40,066 bases of DNA from a virus, in UHGV virus genome UHGV-0132701, one strand, 5' to 3'. This document shows, piece after piece, positions 1 through 40,066 of this stretch. The position numbers and the translations under genes are program-made. Below the pieces are notes generated by a model that saw only the letters and a list, made by a program, of their open reading frames with translations, did not search any database and was not told the DNA's origin. The first letter of the stretch is position 1, and the number at the start of each line of letters is the position of its first letter.

Positions 1-176
1 CTGCAGGGGACACCATTTATCAGTTCGCTCCCATCCGCACCAGTCCGCAAAATCCCCTGAATATCAAGCCTTCCGTATATTCACGGTTCGTCATGGTTCG
101 CGTCAGATCGTTGACAGCCGCACACCATGACGGGTAAAAAGTGGATAAAATAATTTTACCCACCGGATTTTTACCC

Positions 177-30663: not shown

Positions 30664-31537
30664 GAACTTTCAGGTAGGTATTGTCGTTAAGCAGGAAATC
30701 AAATCCCTTTTTGTGCCAGACGGTTCCGCGTTGATGGTTTGGGCGTTCTTCGAACATCCATCGGCAATTTTCGCCTACGTAGCTCAAATAATTTCTCCAG
30801 TCCTGCATCGTGAACCCATGCCCGTCAAGCTGGCGGGTTATCACTCCGGCTTTGCGCCAGAACGTTCGGATCTGGTTTTTACGCTTGTCATTCAGTGCGC
30901 GGATTTTTGGCGCTTCAGGAAGGATTTCGTGGTAAGCATCGACAACATCCTGACAGCTAACGGAAGGTTTTTTCTTGTCAGACTTTTTGTCTGCTGTGGC
31001 ACTCTCTAATACGTCAGTATTAGAGATAATATTATTATATTCTTTATCTGTGGTAATTTGCTGGTAATCTGCTGGTACAGTATTGCTTACAGGCATTGGT
31101 ATTTCTGGCTTTGAGGTGGTAATTTGCTGGTAATCTGCTGGTACAAAATTTGACTGATAATCGTCATATTTCTCTACCGAGAAAACTGAGAATTTACCGT
31201 GTGAAACCCAGTCAATCATGCCGAGTTTTTTGAACTTTCTAAGCAGGTACTGAACGCGATCTGGTTTGAGTCCTGTTTCAAACGCCAGAGAGTTTCTACC
31301 GCCAAGTAGCTTCCCTCTGCCTACCAGAATTTCTCCTGCGTCAGTCATTACATACTCAGGCGTATGCTTTGCTTTGAGGATTAAGTGAACCCACAGATGC
31401 GCAGCTTCTGCGTCCTTGTAAAACGGCACATCCATAATTTTACGGTGCAGCAAGGCATACCCCTTACCGCTGCTTTGATGCGGTTGTTGTAGCCTTCTGG
31501 CCTCTCTGGCTTCGGCTAGATTAGATATGTTACTCAT
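30638..31537 (-). CDS. Replication initiator, lambda O / P22 gene 18-like, with origin iterons inside the coding sequence
   Basis: 299 aa directly upstream of the helicase gene; internal tandem peptide repeat ([10 protein letters not shown]) encoded by DNA iterons; position after cII. Confidence 0.75.
31051..31145. repeat. Replication origin iterons: two copies of a 29-bp unit TGGTAATTTGCTGGTAATCTGCTGGTACA, each containing two GGTAAT(T/C)TGCTG half-repeats, next to an AT-rich tract
   Basis: Exact 29-bp direct repeat at about 31051-31079 and 31117-31145; AT-rich stretch at about 31021-31050; located mid-gene in the O-like initiator as in lambda ori. Confidence 0.7.
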
Positions 31538-31676
31538 GACCTTTCTCCTTCTGCATCAGCTTCACTTTTTCCAACTCAGCCCGGAATCGACCAGGCTGCT
31601 TGAAGCTGGACAGGAAGCGATCACGTAGTATGTGTTTGTGAATTTTGTCCTGGTAAGGACTGAGTGGTTTTGTCAT
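31530..31676 (-). CDS. Small hypothetical protein (48 aa) overlapping both neighbours, not in ORF track
   Basis: Translation [48 protein letters not shown]; start overlaps upstream stop and its end overlaps the initiator start (ATGA). Confidence 0.4.
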
Positions 31677-32080
31677 TAAGCCTCCTCTACTTCGTAATCA
31701 GCGAAGTAACCAGTAGACATTTTTAAAAACCTTGATTCGGTGACTGTGTAAGCCTTCCTTCCTTTCCTCTCCTTGCCTTCAGGCTCTATGAGGTGGCACG
31801 AATAAATGATTCTGCGCTGCCAGTTGCCTGGCATTTCCACCACTGCCAGAACCTCAAGAATTCTCTTTCCTTCAGCATCAGCGGTGTAAAAACACTGATC
31901 ACCATAACCACAATCGGCTGGCTCATAATTTTTGTGACAACCGCCAATCCAGCGCTCATCGGTATGCACGTTGCCGTCATAAGACTGATAATCTGTGCAT
32001 ACGAAGATAAATGGATATACGGTTTCGAACTTGTCACCGGCCTTTATGCCGGTGTTTACTTGCTTGGTTTGTCCTGGCAT
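31676..32080 (-). CDS. Hypothetical Cys/His-containing protein (134 aa) between cII and the replication initiator
   Basis: Start MPGQTKQ with RBS aggagt; upstream part of the six-frame ORF lacks an RBS. No recognised domain. Confidence 0.5.
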
Positions 32081-32114
32081 AATTACTCCTGTTACTTGGC
32101 GTAACACAGTGTGC

Positions 32115-32393
32115 TTAAGCGTCCAGACTGCTACCAACAGCTGGGCGTTTTTCTTTTGTGAGAATCGATGCCACCTGCTGAGCAAGTCTCGCCATCTCAT
32201 CATCAACAACTCCCCATTCAAGAACAGCCAGAAGCATGGCCATCTTTGGGATAAAGCTGTCTTTCCATCGCGAAATTTGCGATTCATTAATCCCTAACGC
32301 GTCGGCAACCTTTCGCTGACCACGTACAGCAATTCGATTCAGGATGTTGCTTGTAATTGCATTCGCTTTCTTGCGAGTACTTGTAAGTTGCAT
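32115..32393 (-). CDS. cII: Transcriptional activator CII
   Basis: ...RIAVRGQRKVADALGINESQISRWKDSFIPKMAMLLAVLEWGVVDDEMARLAQQVASILT... parallels lambda CII; upstream DNA contains the lambda-like TAAGGAAATACTTACATATG start context. Confidence 0.9.
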   Translation of the reverse strand: MQLTSTRKKANAITSNILNRIAVRGQRKVADALGINESQISRWKDSFIPKMAMLLAVLEWGVVDDEMARLAQQVASILTKEKRPAVGSSLDA

Positions 32394-32512
32394 ATGTAAG
32401 TATTTCCTTAGATAACAATTGATTGAATGTATGCAAATAAATGCATACACCATAGGTGTGGTTTAATTTGATGCCCTTTTTCAGGGCTGGAATGTGTAAG
32501 AGCGGGAATGTC

Positions 32513-32728
32513 TTAAGCGGCTTTGTGTTCCGGAGGGAACACGTCATCAAGACTGACTTTTGCGCCTAACTTGTTTAGGCATGCAACAAGAGCGCGGCAT
32601 GTTTTAAGGTCTGGGAAGCGACGACCAGATTCCCAATGCCCAATAGCTCCCTGTGTGCATCCAACCGCCTTAGCAAGTGTTGTTTGAGAGATATTCAGTG
32701 ACTCTCGATATTTTCGTAGGTTGCTCAT
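32513..32728 (-). CDS. cro: Cro-type repressor (HTH, non-lambda specificity)
   Basis: 71 aa from MSNLRKYRESLNISQTTLAKAVGCTQGAIGHWESG (classic HTH); RBS GGAGGG; divergent from cI across the operator region. Confidence 0.8.
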   Translation of the reverse strand: MSNLRKYRESLNISQTTLAKAVGCTQGAIGHWESGRRFPDLKTCRALVACLNKLGAKVSLDDVFPPEHKAA

Positions 32729-32839
32729 ATGCCCTCCATAGTAACCTTGAAACAATAATACGATATGTACTTTTAGAATGCAAACAAAAAATACATCTTG
32801 TGCATGGATGGTTTTAGTACAGAGCGTAATAATAAGGAT
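32729..32839. promoter_or_regulatory. Right operator/promoter region (OR with divergent pR and pRM)
   Basis: AT-rich 110-bp interval between divergent cro and cI; candidate pR on minus strand (TTTGCA - 18 nt - TATTAT) upstream of the cro RBS; operator half-sites not confidently resolved. Confidence 0.6.
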
Positions 32840-33499
32840 ATGAAAATGAAATGGTATGAACTGGCTAGATCCAGAATGAAAGAGCTCGGCATAACTCAAG
32901 AGAAGTTGGCTGAAGAGCTTGGTATGACGCAGGGTGGAATTGGTCACTGGTTGCGCGGATCTCGTCATCCATCTCTTGACGAGATTGGTGTGGTGTTTAA
33001 ATACCTTGGTATTGATAACGTCTCATTCAACCACGACGGTACATTTTCACCTGTTGGCGAATACTCATCTGCCCCCGTTAAAAAACAATATGAGTACCCT
33101 GTTTTTTCTCATGTTCAGGCCGGGATGTTCTCGCCTGAGCTTAGAACCTTTACCAAAGGTGATGCGGAGAGATGGGTCAGCACAACCAAAAAAGCCAGTG
33201 ATTGTGCGTTTTGGCTTGAAGTTGAAGGTAATTCCATGACCGCACCAACAGGATCCAAGCCAAGCTTTCCTGACGGGATGTTAATTCTCGTTGACCCTGA
33301 GCAGGCTGTTGAGCCAGGTGATTTCTGCATAGCCAGACTTGGTGGTGACGAGTTTACCTTCAAGAAACTGATCAGGGATAGCGGTCAGGTGTTCCTACAG
33401 CCACTAAACCCGCAATATCCAATGATTCCATGCAATGATAGCTGTTCCGTAGTAGGGAAAGTTATCGCCAGCCAGTGGCCTGAAGAGACATTTAGTTAA
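32840..33499 (+). CDS. cI: CI repressor: S24 LexA-like autopeptidase domain identical in type to lambda CI, fused to a non-lambda N-terminal HTH domain
   Basis: C-terminal two-thirds ([134 protein letters not shown]) matches lambda CI; N-terminal domain ([37 protein letters not shown]) differs. Confidence 0.9.
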
Positions 33500-33530
33500 C
33501 AGCCTCACCACTCTAAAACACACAACAATA

Positions 33531-33559
33531 ACCCGACCTTAGCGTCGGGTTTTCTTTTT
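33531..33559 (+). terminator. Rho-independent terminator after cI
   Basis: CCCGAC-cttagc-GTCGGG hairpin followed by TTTTCTTTTT. Confidence 0.65.
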
Positions 33560-33624
33560 CCAAAATATAAACCCATTAAATACAAAGCGTTATAAAAAAC
33601 TAATTATATTTAGAACATTTTGTA

Positions 33625-33653
33625 TTGACTCGATAAAGTACAAATCGTACTAT
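33625..33653 (+). promoter_or_regulatory. Candidate pL promoter
   Basis: TTGACT (-35), 17-bp spacer, TACTAT (-10), oriented toward nutL and N; embedded in AT-rich operator-like DNA. Confidence 0.55.
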
Positions 33654-33693
33654 TTAGCCATCAGCAGGACGCACTAACCACCATTGAAGGTGA

Positions 33694-33724
33694 GGCTCTT
33701 AAAAATTTAGCCCTGAAGAAGGGC
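33694..33724 (+). promoter_or_regulatory. nutL antitermination site (boxA + boxB)
   Basis: GCTCTTAAAAA (boxA-like) followed by the lambda boxB hairpin GCCCTGAAGAAGGGC. Confidence 0.85.
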
Positions 33725-33992
33725 AGCATTCAAAGCAGAAGGCTTTGGGGTGTGGTGAAGCCAGCTAGTCACTGGCAAGTGCTTACCTACTGTTGAGCGG
33801 TGAAGCGCTCCCAACGCTAGCAATAGCGTGGACGAGATGGGGAGCCGCGGGCGATAAGGCCGCCATAACGCGCACGTTGTCGCATGGAAAAATCACTGGG
33901 GTGCCGGTTATACCCCTCCGAATGAGACTCAACAAGCTGGAGCTAGACTACCAGCCACCACACCACCAAAGCTAACTGACAGGAGAATCCAG

Positions 33993-34325
33993 ATGGATGC
34001 ACAAACACGCCGCCGCGAACGTCGCGCAGAGAAACAGGCTCAATGGAAAGCAGCAAATCCCCTGTTGGTTGGGGTAAGCGCAAAACCAGTTAACCGCCCT
34101 ATTCTCTCGCTGAATCGCAAACCGAAATCACGAGTAGAAAGCGCACTGAATCCGATAGACCTTACGGTGCTGGCTGAATACCACGAACAGATTGAAAGCA
34201 ACCTGCAACGTATTGAGCGCAAGAATCAGCGCACATGGTACAGCAAGCCACGCAGTGAAATGGGTGTGACTTGTGTTGGTCGCCAGAAAATGAAATTAGG
34301 CAGCAAACCACTGTATGAGGGGTGA
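33993..34325 (+). CDS. N: Antitermination protein N (lambda type)
   Basis: MDAQTRRRERRAEKQAQWKAANPLLVGVSAKPVNRPILSLNRKPKSRVESALNPIDLTVLAEY... matches lambda N including the arginine-rich boxB-binding motif. Confidence 0.95.
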   Translation: MDAQTRRRERRAEKQAQWKAANPLLVGVSAKPVNRPILSLNRKPKSRVESALNPIDLTVLAEYHEQIESNLQRIERKNQRTWYSKPRSEMGVTCVGRQKMKLGSKPLYEG

Positions 34326-34717
34326 ATTATGGCGTCGAACGGAATGCCGAAATGCGGGAACTGAGTTTAACCAAACAGGAGGTGCCGTAATGGTGCACTA
34401 ACGCGGTTAGACCGCAGCCGAAAGGCAATGCAGCAGTAATGATGCTGCCCCGAGTCGCGTAATGGCGAGCAGGTTTAGCAGACCGATGTGAGGGTAAATA
34501 AGGGAACATGCTCCGGAAAGGCAGCGCGAATGCCAGACGCGCACCGGTTATCAGCGGCTAATAAGCGACAGAGACTCAAGGGCATGAGCGCGCTCACTGC
34601 GAGAGTGTGAGTCAAAGAGTAGTTGGCTTTGGGGTGACGTGAAGTGCAGCTGCACGACGGCAACCGGAAGATAAGCAGCCGGCGCGTCACCGCCAAAGTC
34701 AATCATCGGAGGTCAAC

Positions 34718-34990
34718 ATGACAGTAGTCATTACATATCTGGCTGACGATAACGCCAGAAATCGCCGCAGAGCACGCAGACAGGCTCAACGTGAGCAGGC
34801 AATGCAAGAACAGCGACTGGCGCGAAAAATTGCGCTAAAGCTCTCTGGTTGCGTCAGAGCAGACAAAGCAGCATCACTCGGAAGCCTTCGCTGCAAGAAG
34901 GCAGAAGAATGCAGTGGAAGTATTTGCCTGCCAAACGTAGCCATTTACGCGGCAGGATACCGGAAATCAAAACAACTGACGGCGAGGTAA
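34718..34990 (+). CDS. Hypothetical protein (90 aa) with arginine-rich N-terminal segment
   Basis: Six-frame ORF in the pL operon; RNRRRARRQAQREQ segment; coding status uncertain. Confidence 0.3.
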   Translation: MTVVITYLADDNARNRRRARRQAQREQAMQEQRLARKIALKLSGCVRADKAASLGSLRCKKAEECSGSICLPNVAIYAAGYRKSKQLTAR

Positions 34991-35218
34991 GTGATGAATC
35001 AGACATACATTCCATCATGCTTGAGAAATCTGCCAAAGCAGAAAGCAAAGCCCCGCAAGCAAGCCATAAAGGACGCTAAGGCAGAGGTTATTGATCAAGC
35101 AATACAATTGCTCAGGGAGGAGTTAAGAAGTGGCAAGCTCGAAGGAATGATGATGCCCTATCAGCGCGGATATCTATCGGCGATTAGTAAGTTGGAAGTA
35201 TTGAAGAGTGAATTATGA
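34991..35218 (+). CDS. Hypothetical protein (75 aa)
   Basis: ORF immediately following and coupled to the previous one; no recognised motif. Confidence 0.3.
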   Translation: MMNQTYIPSCLRNLPKQKAKPRKQAIKDAKAEVIDQAIQLLREELRSGKLEGMMMPYQRGYLSAISKLEVLKSEL

Positions 35219-35280
35219 ACTATCTGGAATTTCCGGATGGTTCATTGTTTTGGCAGCAAGCCACTTATTTGAGGTGAGAT

Positions 35281-35751
35281 ATGACAAAATCATGGAGCGT
35301 ACCTTTTCCTGAATCAGAAACTGAACATGATGGAATGCCTGTTTTCTGGAGATTCCAGGCGACAGTTGAAGAAGATGGAATCAAAATATTCGCACTTCAA
35401 TATATAGCTTTTCATCAGACAGAGCATTATGCATGGTTGGTTCCTGCGCATTGGATTGTTAATTTTAAACCAGCACCAAATCAGTGGTTACAGGAATGGA
35501 AACAAAAGAGAAATAGATATGCAATTAAGAAAGTAGCAAAAAATGCAGAAAGATCTTTTGCATTCCCAACGAAGAAACTTGCCATTGAAAGTTTATTGCG
35601 CCGGAAGAAATACCATTTAATGAGAATCAAACAAGATTTGGCTGTTGTATCAACTCTTGTTGATGGGATGAAGAATATTGATACATCAACACCAGATATT
35701 GAATATAACTTTGGACACAACCAAGAAACAGAAAATTGGGTATTTTATTAG
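35281..35751 (+). CDS. Hypothetical AT-rich moron protein (156 aa) in the N-to-cIII interval
   Basis: RBS gaggtgagat before ATG; strongly AT-rich codon usage unlike neighbours; followed by its own strong terminator; occupies the ral/sieB-type accessory slot of lambdoid phages. Confidence 0.55.
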   Translation: MTKSWSVPFPESETEHDGMPVFWRFQATVEEDGIKIFALQYIAFHQTEHYAWLVPAHWIVNFKPAPNQWLQEWKQKRNRYAIKKVAKNAERSFAFPTKKLAIESLLRRKKYHLMRIKQDLAVVSTLVDGMKNIDTSTPDIEYNFGHNQETENWVFY

Positions 35752-35855
35752 TACAAATAAGCACTGTGTATTCATTCCAACGAGTGAATACACGGAGCAA
35801 TGTCGCTCGTAACTAAACAGGAGCCGACTTGTTCTGATTATTGGAAATCTTCTTT

Positions 35856-35880
35856 GCCCTCTAATGTGAGGGCCTTTTTA
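35856..35880 (+). terminator. Rho-independent terminator after the AT-rich moron
   Basis: GCCCTC-taatgt-GAGGGC hairpin followed by CTTTTTA. Confidence 0.65.
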
Positions 35881-35945
35881 TATGCATACCAATAACGCTT
35901 CACTCGAGGCGTTTTCGTTATGCAATCAAATATAAGGAGTTACCC

Positions 35946-36080
35946 ATGATGCACTTTCAGCTCGCGGGTAGCGGCGTCATGTCCGCTTTCTACCCGCACG
36001 AATCTGAATTATCACGCCGGGTTAAACAATTAATCAGAGCAGCAAAGAAACAACTGGAGGCGTTATGCGCAATGAAATAG
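35946..36080 (+). CDS. cIII-like small protein (44 aa), candidate FtsH inhibitor; not in ORF track
   Basis: Strong RBS taaggag; translation MMHFQLAGSGVMSAFYPHESELSRRVKQLIRAAKKQLEALCAMK shows the AG..SESEL.R..K.L pattern resembling lambda/P22 CIII; position matches. Confidence 0.45.
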   Translation: MMHFQLAGSGVMSAFYPHESELSRRVKQLIRAAKKQLEALCAMK

Positions 36081-36217
36081 CCATTAATCACCAGATGCTT
36101 CGTGCTGCACAGAACAAAGCAGTAATAGCCAGATTTATTGGTGATTCAAAAATGTGGCTTGAAGCAAATAAAGCGATGAAATCAGCTATCAACCTTCCGT
36201 GGTATCGCAGGAAATGA
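36065..36217 (+). CDS. Small hypothetical protein (50 aa), kil position; not in ORF track
   Basis: RBS GGAGG; overlaps upstream stop; translation MRNEIAINHQMLRAAQNKAVIARFIGDSKMWLEANKAMKSAINLPWYRRK. Confidence 0.35.
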   Translation: MRNEIAINHQMLRAAQNKAVIARFIGDSKMWLEANKAMKSAINLPWYRRK

Positions 36218-36372
36218 GTTTTACAGATAACTGGTCAGACGAAGAATTCATTCGTCAGATGAAAGAATTAATCGGTAACGAAGGAGATATTCATGTCACT
36301 TGCAACCACAGTGAAGGAGAGCAAGTTACAGAGAAGCATGTACACGCAGAAAGCTCTCTGGTATCGCCATAA
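36214..36372 (+). CDS. Small hypothetical acidic protein (52 aa); not in ORF track
   Basis: ATGA overlap with upstream ORF; translation MSFTDNWSDEEFIRQMKELIGNEGDIHVTCNHSEGEQVTEKHVHAESSLVSP. Confidence 0.3.
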   Translation: MSFTDNWSDEEFIRQMKELIGNEGDIHVTCNHSEGEQVTEKHVHAESSLVSP

Positions 36373-36471
36373 TGGTGACCGCGAAGGAATGCGGGTATGC
36401 CTTAATTTGTCCAGAGTCGAAGTATTAAATCAGCGTTATTTCCTTGGGCCGTGTCCATTCTGAGGTGAATT

Positions 36472-37179
36472 ATGGATTTGAACAAATTCGATGAGCCATT
36501 CAGCCCTGAAGATATCGAATGGCGAATACAGCAAAGCGGTAAAACACGCGATGGCAAGGTGTGGGCTATGGTGCTGGCTTATGTCACGAACCGGGCAATC
36601 ATGAAGCGCCTGGACGATGTTTGCGGCAAAGCAGGATGGCGCAATGAATACCGCGATATTCCCAACAACGGCGGAGTTGAATGCGGCATATCAATCAAGA
36701 TTGATTCCGAATGGGTAACCAAATGGGATGCTGCTGAAAACACGCAGGTAGAAGCCGTCAAAGGTGGTCGTTCCGGTGCAATGAAGCGCGCTGCCGTTCA
36801 GTGGGGAATCGGTCGGTATCTGTATAACCTTGAGGAAGGTTTCGCACAAACATCTCTCGATAAAAAGCAGGGATGGCACAGGGCAAAACTCAAGGATGGA
36901 ACAGGATTTTACTGGCTCCCTCCATCGCTGCCGGGATGGGCAATCCCAGCATCAGATAACAAACCATCACCAGAAAATACCAACCAGAAATCTCCATCGG
37001 TTGACTGCGAACAAATCCTGAAAGACTTCAGCGATTATGCATCAACAGAAACTGACAAGAAAAAACTCATCGAGCGTTATCAGCGTGACTGGCAATTAAT
37101 GGCTGGCAACGAGGAGGCGCAGGCTAAATGCGTTCAGGTAATGAACATCAGAGTTAACGAACTAAAACAGGCGGCATAA
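36472..37179 (+). CDS. Single-strand annealing protein, Rad52/22 family (Sak-type recombinase)
   Basis: Motif GAMKRAAVQWGIGRYLYNL and upstream GISIKIDSEWVTKWDAAEN typical of Rad52-family annealases; followed directly by ssb. Confidence 0.75.
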   Translation: MDLNKFDEPFSPEDIEWRIQQSGKTRDGKVWAMVLAYVTNRAIMKRLDDVCGKAGWRNEYRDIPNNGGVECGISIKIDSEWVTKWDAAENTQVEAVKGGRSGAMKRAAVQWGIGRYLYNLEEGFAQTSLDKKQGWHRAKLKDGTGFYWLPPSLPGWAIPASDNKPSPENTNQKSPSVDCEQILKDFSDYASTETDKKKLIERYQRDWQLMAGNEEAQAKCVQVMNIRVNELKQAA

Positions 37180-37686
37180 ATGGCAAGCAGAGGCGTAAAT
37201 AAGGTGATTATCCTTGGTCGGGTAGGACAAGACCCGGAAGTTCGATACTCACCATCAGGAACAGCGTTCGCTAACCTGACAATAGCCACGTCAGAACAAT
37301 GGCGAGATAAAAATACTGGCGAGCAAAAGGAATTGACTGAATGGCATCGTGTTGCTGTATCCGGGAAACTGGCTGAGGTCGTGGGGCAGTATGTGAAAAA
37401 AGGTGATCAGATTTATTTCGAGGGAATGCTGAGAACCAGAAAGTGGAAAGACCAGTCAGGACAAGACCGTTACACAACCGAGGTTCATGTCGGAATTAAT
37501 GGCGTGATGCAAATGCTTGGCGGCATTGGCGACAGCAAACAACAAGCAGCCAGCAGGCAATCACAGAAGCCACAGCAGCAATCATCACCAGCACAACACA
37601 ACGAACCTCCGATGGATTTTGACGACGATATACCCTTTGCACCAGTAACTCTCCCCTTCCCTCGTCACGCTATTCACGCAATTTAA
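37180..37686 (+). CDS. ssb: Single-stranded DNA-binding protein
   Basis: OB-fold N-terminus ([40 protein letters not shown]), Gln/Pro-rich linker and acidic C-terminal tail MDFDDDIPF. Confidence 0.9.
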
Positions 37687-37699
37687 TCAGGAGAAAATC

Positions 37700-37993
37700 A
37701 TGCCAGCGCCTTTGTATGGTGCGGATGACCCGCGCCGCTGTTCCGGCAATTCCGTATCGGAGGTGCTGGATAAATTCAGAAAAAACTACGATCGAATAAT
37801 GTCTCTACCGCAGGAAACGAAAGAGGAAAAGGAATTTCGCCACTGTATATGGCTTGCAGAGAAAGAAGAACGCGAGCGAATTTACCAGACATCAATCCGA
37901 CCATTCCGCAAATCCACATATACCCACTTCCCTGAAATTGACCCGCGCCTGCGTAATTACCGCTCACGCTATGGCGCTATCAGTAATGACTGA
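37700..37993 (+). CDS. Hypothetical protein (97 aa)
   Basis: ORF in early-left operon, 13 nt after ssb. Confidence 0.4.
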
Positions 37994-38003
37994 GGAATTT
38001 ACA

Positions 38004-38171
38004 ATGAGAGGAATTGCATACAATCCCGGCATTCTTCCGGCAGAAATGATTATTCGCCAACGCGTAAAGCCAATGCCATCGAGAGAGGAATTGCTTAAGA
38101 GAAATTCTTTTCCATCAGTGAATCAAAACAAATATCTGAATGCGATGTGGCGCAAAGGAGGCAACCAGTGA
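38004..38171 (+). CDS. Small hypothetical protein (55 aa)
   Basis: Start MRGIAYNPG with RBS gaggaa; stop overlaps next gene start. Confidence 0.35.
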
Positions 38172-38833
38172 GCAAGATTGACTATCAGGTACTGCGTGAG
38201 GCAGCAGTAGCAATTGAAACAGTAGCAACGCCTCAAAAATTGCTGGCATTTCGTATGAAAGTCACACCTCAGGTTGTGCTGGCTCTACTGGATGAACGAG
38301 ATGCATTAAATGAACGCCTAGCCGAACTGGAGGCTGATTTAGCAGGGCTGGCCGAAGACCACCAGAAAGCGACTGAGTCAATTAAGCAGGCTGATGCAGC
38401 TGTTAAGTTGGCACACGAGAAGTTTTCGGCGCTGGCGGCGGAGAATGCGGGGCTGAAAGACACTCTATCAGCAGTGATTGACCGCAGTAACGAGCCTGAT
38501 TATCAAAGCATCGGAATGGGCTGTGGTGTTGAGGATAACGGTCTTCAGACTGACGGTTATAACGCCTGTGAATATGGATGGCGCGAAGCAATGGATCGCA
38601 TTTACTCAGAAGTTATTCCAGACACTATTCCTGAAACCCCGGCGACAGACGCCTTCCTGGCTGAAGTGCGGGCGCATGACCTCAACGCTTTCATTCGGCA
38701 TCACAGTGCAGAACTGGATGCGCATATTAAAAACGGTGGTGAGCAGTTCGACGAAAAATCAGTACGCATCAGAGACATCATCGTCTCAGCCCGCTTGTTC
38801 AGGGAGCAGATTCGCAAGGAGGCCGCCCAATGA
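38168..38833 (+). CDS. Ead/Ea22-like coiled-coil protein (GTG start)
   Basis: RBS GGAGG before GTG; central coiled-coil ([48 protein letters not shown]); position and character match Ea22-family genes of lambdoid early-left regions. Confidence 0.55.
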
Positions 38834-39201
38834 GCAACATCGACAAACAGGCGCTGCGCCTAACAGCAGAAAAGGCAAAAGATAACTTCATGCCGAACTT
38901 TATGGTCCCCACTCGGGATGTGCTGGCGCTGCTTGATGAGCTGGAAGCCAAAGACTCAAGCATCTCTACTCAGCAGCATGAAATACGTACACTTCTTAAT
39001 GCTCTAGAGCAAGCAACGGAGAAGCGAAACTCTGACATTCCTGGTCAGAAACGACTGATTGGGTGGCGGGCATCAGACTACACCGACGAGACATCTGACC
39101 CTGAGTTAGCTAAAAACTGGGCCGCTGCAATTGGTGTACTGCCTATTTTTGAAGGTGATGTGAATACCAAGCTTAGCGCCGCTGGCATCAAGGGGGAGTA
39201 G
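38830..39201 (+). CDS. Ead/Ea22-like hypothetical protein (123 aa)
   Basis: ORF coupled to the previous gene (4-nt overlap); helical. Confidence 0.45.
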   Translation: MSNIDKQALRLTAEKAKDNFMPNFMVPTRDVLALLDELEAKDSSISTQQHEIRTLLNALEQATEKRNSDIPGQKRLIGWRASDYTDETSDPELAKNWAAAIGVLPIFEGDVNTKLSAAGIKGE

Positions 39202-39205
39202 GGAT

Positions 39206-39955
39206 ATGGCTGAATTTACGAAAGAGCAGTTGATTGAGAAGCTTGAGCGCCGTCTTGCGGTAACAACCCATTACCCTGATTTTGAAGAAGCGCAACTCGA
39301 TGCGCAAATCTTCAAAATCGCACTGGAAGCGCTGACGGCTGGCATGGAGCAGGAGCCGGTGGCGTGGCTGCTGTCAGGCGGCGGCGCAAAAAACAACGTC
39401 AGCTTCGATAGTGGCAATGCTTATGCCGACCCGCTGCGAGAAGTAACGCCGCTTTACACCGCCCCGCCAGCGCCGGTATCTGTGCCCGCTGCGATGGAAA
39501 TTGATGATGACTTTGACAGCGCGTTTGAACACGGAAAAGCTGTCGGCTGGAACGCCTATCGCGCCGCCATGCTTCAGGCCGAACCTGTAAGTAATAGTGA
39601 TGAGTTACCGCTGGACTATCTGCAAGGACACAAAGACGGCCTGGAGTGGGCTGCACAATTGGCAGAAGCCAATCATCCGCAAACAGGTGACTGGTTGTAC
39701 GACGACCCAATCGATCTTGCCAGGGCGATTCGCAAAGGTCCGGATATGCCTACTGTTCAGGGTGGCAACTCTCCGGTGATTCCAGATGGTTGGGTGATGG
39801 TGCCGGTTGAGCCTACGATAGCCATTCTAGACGAATTCGATTCGATTATTGATTACGGCGCTGAGGATTCTAAGGATGCGTGGAGTCGTCTTCTGGCAGC
39901 CGCTTGGATTAAATCGCTGCCAGCAGCGCCGCGGCAGGAGGTTAACCGTGGCTAA
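39206..39955 (+). CDS. Hypothetical acidic protein (249 aa), early-left operon
   Basis: ORF with RBS GGGGAG; no recognised domain. Confidence 0.45.
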   Translation: MAEFTKEQLIEKLERRLAVTTHYPDFEEAQLDAQIFKIALEALTAGMEQEPVAWLLSGGGAKNNVSFDSGNAYADPLREVTPLYTAPPAPVSVPAAMEIDDDFDSAFEHGKAVGWNAYRAAMLQAEPVSNSDELPLDYLQGHKDGLEWAAQLAEANHPQTGDWLYDDPIDLARAIRKGPDMPTVQGGNSPVIPDGWVMVPVEPTIAILDEFDSIIDYGAEDSKDAWSRLLAAAWIKSLPAAPRQEVNRG

Positions 39956-40066
39956 CCTGCAACTTGCCGTCAAAGGTGAATAACAATCCTCGCACTCGCG
40001 GGGATTTCTTTTATCTGAACTCGCTACGGCGAGTTTTGTTTTATGGAGATGATAAATGCACTTCCG

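Follow-up and report, generated by a model that had tools for sequence, protein, structure and literature searches.

In bacteriophage lambda, the S24 C-terminal domain of the CI repressor carries the Ser/Lys dyad for autocleavage and mediates dimerisation and cooperativity. In the repressor of the Salmonella phage epsilon34, the C-terminal domain is about 80% identical to those of lambda and HK97 and the N-terminal domain about 50% identical to those of L, VT2-Sa, and Nil2; in such repressors, the protease domain at the C-terminus is lambda/HK97-like and the N-terminal domain comes from the L/VT2-Sa/Nil2 group, and the operator proposed for epsilon34, with the consensus WTACRAWWTGTAT, has the core ATAC-N5-GTAT (PMC2629481). 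A domain mosaic of this kind is not discussed in a paper on the diversity of CI in Shiga toxin (Stx) phages (PMC8951638), the phage L genome paper contains no operator data, and our literature search yielded no usable immunity experiment with Nil2 or Morioka V526 and no cross-immunity test.

Here we describe the immunity region of the virus genome UHGV-0132701, studied as a single stretch of 40,066 nucleotides (nt) that is called the window throughout. The window reads as a P22-like (Lederbergvirus-like) mosaic coliphage, and its cI-cro region is very probably the working lysis/lysogeny switch of a complete phage of this kind, with a known non-lambda specificity placed in a lambda-type framework. 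An earlier sequence-only reading had assigned positions 32729-33724 to a hybrid immunity region in which N, nutL, and the CI C-terminal domain are of lambda type and the CI DNA-binding domain, cro, and the operators are not. This range does span oR through nutL, but the N and cro genes on which the proposal draws lie outside it (Table 1).

Lambda-type and non-lambda parts of the control region

The cI gene is composed of two parts of different affinity, positions 32846-33088 encoding a non-lambda helix-turn-helix (HTH) domain and linker, and positions 33089-33499 encoding a lambda-type cleavage region and C-terminal domain. In lambda numbering, 17 of the 79 residues before Tyr101 are identical to lambda CI (22%), and from Tyr101 to the end 133 of 136 are identical (98%), with S139C, E217D, and G236S as the three differences. 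The alignment shows that the Ala111-Gly112 cleavage site, Ser149, and Lys192 are kept, the motifs VQAGMF, GNSMT, and FKKL being in register with lambda A111-G112, S149, and K192; in the 217-residue protein, the Ala-Gly site corresponds to residues 92-93. The protein has the composition of the HTH plus peptidase S24 repressor class, with Pfam HTH_3 covering residues 11-58, and a search of the PDB retrieved the intact lambda repressor (3bdn, E=2e-96) as well as the lambda C-terminal-domain structures 1f39, 2ho0, and 8gmu. With 98% identity to lambda over the cleavage region and C-terminal domain, CI would be expected to undergo RecA-stimulated self-cleavage.

Cro is 33% identical to lambda Cro in an alignment that needs large gaps, and it belongs to a different fold class; its amino acid identity is 100% to Nil2 Cro, 69% to that of phage L, and 45% to that of epsilon34. 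In their recognition helices, CI and Cro hardly differ from their phage L counterparts. In the control DNA, which includes a divergent promoter-operator interval of 111 bp between cro and cI, six 17-mers share the half-site wA(G/A)TAC(A/G) and the core ATAC-N5-GTAT, a core that is also seen in phage L oR. The pattern AGTAC-N5-GTACT has eight matches in the window, and four of them fall within 212 bp of control DNA (Poisson 1.4e-7). The lambda operator consensus (TATCACCGCCAGTGGTA type), on the other hand, has no match with up to three mismatches anywhere in the 40-kb window. The pR candidate coincides in position with the 'putative major rightward promoter' annotated in AP005153, and at pL the homology to lambda starts at 33659, the equivalent of lambda 35583, where the pL transcript begins. 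The predicted operators and promoters follow the lambda layout. These comparisons bear out the division of the region made in the sequence-only reading: neither the N-terminal domain nor the operators are identical to lambda, cro encodes a 71-residue HTH_3 protein, and the C-terminal domain of CI is of lambda type.

The early control region is oriented in reverse of the standard lambda map, as judged from the open reading frames (ORFs) and features of the window. A blastn comparison of window positions 31500-35500 with lambda 34300-39200 delimited the lambda-like blocks. Positions 33089-33493, that is, cI from about codon 101 to its end, match lambda 37637-37233 at 93.8%; positions 33522-33557 match Timm (lambda 35834-35799) at 89%, a terminator that in lambda lies downstream of rexB; positions 33659-33754, from pL +1 through nutL, match lambda 35583-35489 at 95.8%; and positions 33946-34294 correspond to N at 93%. 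On the other side, cII to nutR (32140-32506) is 74% identical overall, the stretch from nutR to tR1 reads lambda-like, and similarity resumes at 32506, just beyond the cro stop codon. No nucleotide similarity to lambda was detected in 32507-33088, which holds cro, oR, and the CI N-terminal domain, or in 33558-33658, which holds oL and pL. The joints of the mosaic are classical ones, namely the junction of the cro stop with nutR, the CI inter-domain linker at Tyr101, the junction of Timm with oL3, and pL +1. The earlier observation that cI is followed directly by a terminator, with no rexAB-type genes before pL, was likewise confirmed, since the Timm hairpin stands directly 3' of cI and neither strand has an ORF of at least 40 amino acids (aa) between the cI stop (33499) and 33783.

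The N protein differs from lambda N at one position within residues 1-86 and has the arginine-rich motif and NusA-binding region of the lambda N class, and boxA and a lambda-type boxB are found downstream of both pL and pR, in agreement with the proposal of a lambda-type N/nutL system. The stretch from the pL transcript start through N (33659-34332) is 98.7% identical to HK544, and nutL is the same as the annotated nutL of that phage. In the N leader, the base of a long hairpin (GGCTTTGGGGTGTGGTG ... CACCACACCACCAAAGC) is conserved with lambda, and where it adjoins the N start we take it to be the RNase III site of lambda. The apical ~190 nt (33755-33945) are unrelated to lambda, rich in G+C, and common to HK544, mEp213, and 720R6. 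The leader folds better than shuffled sequences (z = -3.6), and searches of Rfam gave nothing relevant in the whole window at gathering thresholds, nor in 33500-34800 at E values up to 5. The parts of the region that do not read operators are all of lambda type, namely the CI linker, the S24 C-terminal domain, Timm, the pL transcript start, nutL, nutR, and N.

Table 1 Predicted features of the control region and of the adjoining pL operon, in window coordinates
Feature	Position	Strand	Remarks
cII, 92 aa, lambda family	32115..32393	-	Pfam Phage_CII E=4e-43
nutR, lambda type	32473..32504	-	boxA CGCTCTTA 32497-32504; boxB GCCCTGAAAAAGGGC 32473-32487
cro, 71 aa, HTH_3 class	32513..32728	-	Pfam HTH_3 E=4e-12
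pR candidate	32755..32784	-	Consensus scan: -35 TTTGCA 32779-32784, 18-nt spacer, -10 TATTAT 32755-32760
oR1 TAATACGATATGTACTT	32756..32772		Overlaps pR -10; coincides with putative operator annotated in AP005153
oR2 AAATACATCTTGTGCAT	32789..32805		Weakest match; putative operator annotated in AP005153
oR3 TAGTACAGAGCGTAATA	32815..32831		Overlaps likely pRM -10; putative operator annotated in AP005153
cI repressor, 217 aa	32846..33499	+	Pfam HTH_3 E=8e-11, Peptidase_S24 E=9e-29
Timm, intrinsic terminator	33530..33559	+	8-bp stem and T-run, directly 3' of cI
oL/pL region	33578-33653		Operators oL3, oL2, oL1 and pL
oL3 AAATACAAAGCGTTATA	33578..33594		Kept in Nil2 oL
oL2 TAGAACATTTTGTATTG	33611..33627		Overlaps pL -35; kept in Nil2 oL
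pL	33625..33653	+	Consensus scan: TTGACT, 17-nt spacer, TACTAT
oL1 AAGTACAAATCGTACTA	33636..33652		Between pL -35 and -10; perfect palindrome AGTAC-N5-GTACT; kept in Nil2 oL
nutL	33694..33724	+	boxA GGCTCTTA 33694-33701; boxB GCCCTGAAGAAGGGC 33710-33724
N leader, 268 nt	33725..33992	+	
N, lambda type, 110 aa	33993..34325	+	Pfam N36 E=1.6e-26
HK620-type boxB remnant	34343..34358	+	AATGCCGAAATGCGGG vs CCCGCCGAAATGCGGG; 5' arm lost, 3' half only
Conserved structured noncoding element, ~210 nt	34385..34629, core ~34400-34612	+	nhmmer; single copy in window
Second N-like antiterminator gene, HK620/mEp213_047 type, 90 aa	34718..34990	+	Pfam N_peptide E=8e-16, phrog_271

Relatives, immunity type, and origin of the mosaic

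The closest relatives of the region are found in the coliphages vB_EcoP-720R6 (ON470605), Louie (PQ850616), Dewey (PQ850600), vB_EcoP-683R2, and phi458 (OP434518), which are 98-99% identical in nucleotide sequence from cII through N, have the same gene order, and also carry no gene between cI and pL. They diverge downstream of N, and none has a second N gene joined as in the window. The cI/cro type is the common one of Stx phages, represented by Nil2 (AJ413274), AP005153, Stx2 II, 2851, 1717, and the PA series. From the cro stop to the cI stop, the window is 92.4% identical in nucleotide sequence to Nil2, the Stx1 and Stx2-II phages of Morioka V526, 2851, and the PA series. Nil2 CI is 96-97% identical, with 78/81 and 132/136 residues shared in its two parts, and Nil2 oL is 78% identical, with the operator sites kept and the DNA between them diverged; in the Stx1-converting phage AP005153, three oR operators are annotated at matching positions. 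With CI and Cro at least 90% identical and matching operators at matching positions in oR and oL, the region falls into the Nil2/Stx-phage type. The flanks, compared within this type for Nil2 only, differ in that Nil2 has an extra ORF between cI and pL and an N gene and nutL that are not of lambda type.

The lambda-immunity phages lambda, HK544, HK542, HK244, and CL707 share the complementary set of features, namely the CI linker and C-terminal domain (98% at the amino acid level), Timm, pL +1, nutL, nutR, N, and the architecture of the region, but differ in the CI N-terminal domain, in cro, and in all six operators. HK544 in addition shares the non-lambda insert of the N leader and the C-terminus of N. 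Between cI and Timm, lambda has rexAB and HK544 two other ORFs, whereas the phage described here has nothing.

Beyond the Nil2 type, the next relatives of the CI N-terminal domain (47-54% identity) are the repressors of the Salmonella phages epsilon34, g341c, SPN9CC, and L, and the DNA-binding domain belongs to the phage L/epsilon34 group. The Salmonella phages L/ST64T and epsilon34, compared through their c2/cII repressor and Cro, have an N-terminal domain of 47-50% identity, recognition helices that are almost the same, and the shared operator core ATAC-N5-GTAT; they are nevertheless too diverged for the same specificity to be assumed. Their C-terminal domains go different ways, that of phage L not being of lambda type (44% identity) and that of epsilon34 belonging to the lambda family (79%). 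The immunity module is thus already known, as sequence and as a concept, and near-identical copies have been deposited: the module of cro, oR, and the CI N-terminal domain (32513-33088) was found in 776 of 5426 complete E. coli genomes, about one in seven, and the N-terminal domain at 95% or more amino acid identity in 63 phage records.

The earlier description of the region as recombinant stands, but in a relative sense. The change at Tyr101 is abrupt, from no nucleotide similarity to 94%, and an exchange in the linker must therefore have taken place in some lineage; that epsilon34 joins a related head to a lambda-family tail, and phage L a related head to a different tail, indicates that the families of heads and tails reassort repeatedly. 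The present data do not show which of the two, this phage or lambda, received the exchanged part, and lambda itself may be the recombinant. In a rival reading, the N-terminal head has long been partnered with a lambda-family tail, so that the phage is no recent lambda hybrid, the near-identity being owed to lambda or to gene conversion of the C-terminal domain, and the word 'hybrid' fits lambda as much as this phage. The epsilon34 repressor, with its related N-terminal domain (50%) and lambda-family C-terminal domain (79%), a pairing that is also stated in the literature (PMC2629481), favours such a history. On the other hand, the C-terminal domain is far closer to lambda (98% in amino acids, 94% in nucleotides) than to epsilon34 (79%), while for the N-terminal domain the order is reversed, and these opposite affinities require at least one linker exchange in some lineage; the different C-terminal domain that accompanies a related N-terminal domain in phage L (44%) also shows that the two domains reassort. 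We regard a long partnership of this kind as a possible but somewhat doubtful history.

Predicted working of the switch

From the sequence relationships, conserved motifs, and operator positions described above, binding, cleavage, cooperativity, and the immunity phenotype can be predicted as follows. CI would bind the six 17-bp operators, three in oR and three in oL, through its HTH domain of the phage L/epsilon34 family, and the HTH_3-type Cro, whose recognition helix is near-identical to that of CI, would compete for the same operators. CI dimers at oL1/oL2 and oR1/oR2 would repress pL and pR, and pRM may be activated by CI at oR2, whose centre lies ~44 bp upstream of the start predicted for pRM. 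Dimerisation, cooperativity, and RecA-stimulated self-cleavage would come from the lambda-identical C-terminal domain. Looping between oL and oR is probable and would span ~880 bp, which is less than the 2.4 kb in lambda because rexAB is absent. On the lytic side, N would modify RNA polymerase at the lambda-type nut sites and thereby bring about antitermination.

Because the operators, the recognition helix, and the Cro fold class all differ from those of lambda, it can soundly be inferred that the phage is heteroimmune to lambda. Homoimmunity is inferred with the Nil2-type Stx phages and with 720R6, Louie, Dewey, and phi458. Through its lambda-identical C-terminal domain, CI could form mixed oligomers with the CI of lambda-immunity phages in polylysogens.

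Several points weigh against this account of the switch. In the searchable literature no experiment on this exact repressor was found, and binding, cleavage, and immunity are predictions to that extent. The oR2 site is a weak operator match, and lambda-style pairwise cooperativity at oR is not guaranteed because the spacing from oR1 to oR2 is 33 bp, compared with 24 bp in lambda. The C-terminal 24 residues of N differ from lambda N and are of the HK544 type. Finally, the cI start codon is ambiguous, with candidates at 32804, 32840, and 32846. The ATG at 32846 has AAGGA 7 nt upstream and is the start used in the Nil2 and 720R6 records; in other genomes, RefSeq-style annotation starts the homologous gene at the equivalent of the ATG at 32804, which would overlap oR2/oR3. 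If translation began at 32840-32846, the pRM message would have no leader or almost none, as in lambda. Of the two ATG codons in that interval, the one at 32840 would fit a leaderless pRM transcript of the lambda kind.

The region might also be the decayed or cryptic remnant of an immunity region that no longer works as a switch, as could be read from the lack of rexAB and from the neighbouring second N gene with its broken nut site, which points to a recent rearrangement. This is highly improbable, as all ORFs are intact, the catalytic and cleavage residues of CI are kept, and nothing is missing from the set of promoters, six operators, Timm, and two nut sites; wild lambda-immunity phages such as HK544 also lack rexAB, and the matching region occurs in the isolated plaque-forming phages 720R6, Louie, and Dewey. 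The genome around the region is close to complete as well. The IMG/VR contig UViG_3300029170_000013, probably from the same sample as the window, is 100% identical to window 34186-40066, continues for 488 nt, and then enters window 1-99. The contig therefore bridges the ends of the window and makes it a nearly complete circular or permuted genome of ~40.55 kb, and this circle of ~40.5 kb contains head, tail, lysis, and replication genes. That the immunity is simply that of lambda, with differences only apparent, has the lambda-type C-terminal domain, N, and nut sites in its favour but is refuted at the sequence level and has next to no chance of being right, given the N-terminal domain of 22% identity, the Cro of a different fold class, and the lack of any lambda operator match within three mismatches.

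A second N gene and a structured element in the pL operon

Beyond the switch, which we take to be a working one, the pL operon continues into a second N-like gene downstream of the lambda-type N. Its product is identical to HK620 N in 89 of 90 residues, and the gene has its own lambda-like leader hairpin at 34625-34700. In HK620, both nutL and nutR have the boxB CCCGCCGAAATGCGGG, of which only the 3' half survives upstream of the second N; the two N modules are therefore joined within the boxB of the second one. The window contains no boxA for this N and no other copy of an HK620-type boxB. With half a boxB, no boxA, and no further copy, a working nut site for the second N was ruled out. The phage mEp213 also has both N genes, but with three small ORFs between them. 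The direct junction of the two was not found in the phage collection, in the 5426 complete E. coli genomes, or in the representative genomes of GTDB, and in IMG/VR it is present only in the contig identical to the window. With no cognate nut site in its own genome, the second N could have targets only in trans, namely co-resident or superinfecting phages.

At the usual module joint of N stop and next-gene ATG, an ORF of 11 codons, MASNGMPKCGN* (34326-34361, plus strand), begins 4 nt beyond the stop of N and extends into the boxB remnant; some 15 nt of its sequence (GCGTCGAACGGAATG) could not be assigned to a source.

Between the boxB remnant and the leader hairpin of the second N lies a conserved noncoding element that is absent from HK620. 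In Stx2c phages it is located downstream of an intact HK620-type pL/nutL, in the Hafnia phage yong1 after cI-rexA-rexB, in vB_EcoS-733R5 between the lysis genes and the terminase, and in the Klebsiella phage RothC just downstream of Q; the Providencia phage PSTCR7lys also carries it. A conserved 27-mer of the element was found in at least 120 IMG/VR contigs and in 19 species-representative genomes, nearly all of them Enterobacterales. The IMG/VR matches listed comprise 90 unique copies and 60 representatives below 95% identity. Copies among the matches listed are intergenic, with an N gene downstream in 19 of 119, Q just upstream in 14 of 119, and other or unidentified contexts in the rest.

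The structure of the element was evaluated by covariation. Since RNAalifold on a MAFFT alignment recovered the structure only in part, the variable middle domain being misaligned, a set of eight hand-drawn helices was tested instead. Paired positions amounted to 91%, compared with 28-45% when the partner strand was slid, and 13 pairs showed double changes, compared with 4.0 +/- 1.4 in shuffles, none of 500 of which reached the observed value. A pseudoknot-type contact of CCC(C/T) with (G/A)GG covaries as well (C-G 49, T-A 25, C-A 12, T-G 2; Fisher 7e-11, phylogeny not controlled). The element has no match in Rfam 15, and its conserved 16-18-mers were not found in the literature searched. It is a candidate for a new structured RNA family of temperate enterobacterial phages, and, given its place in long antiterminated operons, it may act in cis on elongation or on the expression of the gene downstream.

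Two other identities of the element were considered. An ORF of at least 60 aa on the minus strand overlaps 105 of 119 copies, but a protein was ruled out because 3-base periodicity is lacking and 1-nt indels occur inside conserved blocks. An identity with the Pas small RNAs (sRNAs) was rejected since these have terminator stem-loops and other gene contexts; AgvB and AsxR, candidates by name from the literature only, stand outside this sRNA comparison.

On the far side of the switch, a 135-aa ORF (31676-32083, minus strand; phrog_30464) lies between cII and the orf48-like/O genes, without a Pfam or PADLOC match, and is absent from the otherwise near-identical region of 720R6. In lambda, this position presumably holds only oop.

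As for the immunity region itself, our findings add little: the swapping of the HTH domain, cro, and the operators as a unit is textbook lambdoid modular evolution, and the specificity of the region is among the commonest in E. coli prophages, Stx phages included. In annotations, the phage is best described as heteroimmune to lambda and homoimmune with the Nil2-type Stx phages, a distinction that matters for superinfection and for co-induction in polylysogens. We tentatively suggest that the pL operon may carry two undescribed layers, a structured leader RNA and a heterospecific N without a cognate nut site. The structured RNA and the orphan second N are candidate new regulatory elements of temperate Enterobacterales phages, and they may matter more than the switch.

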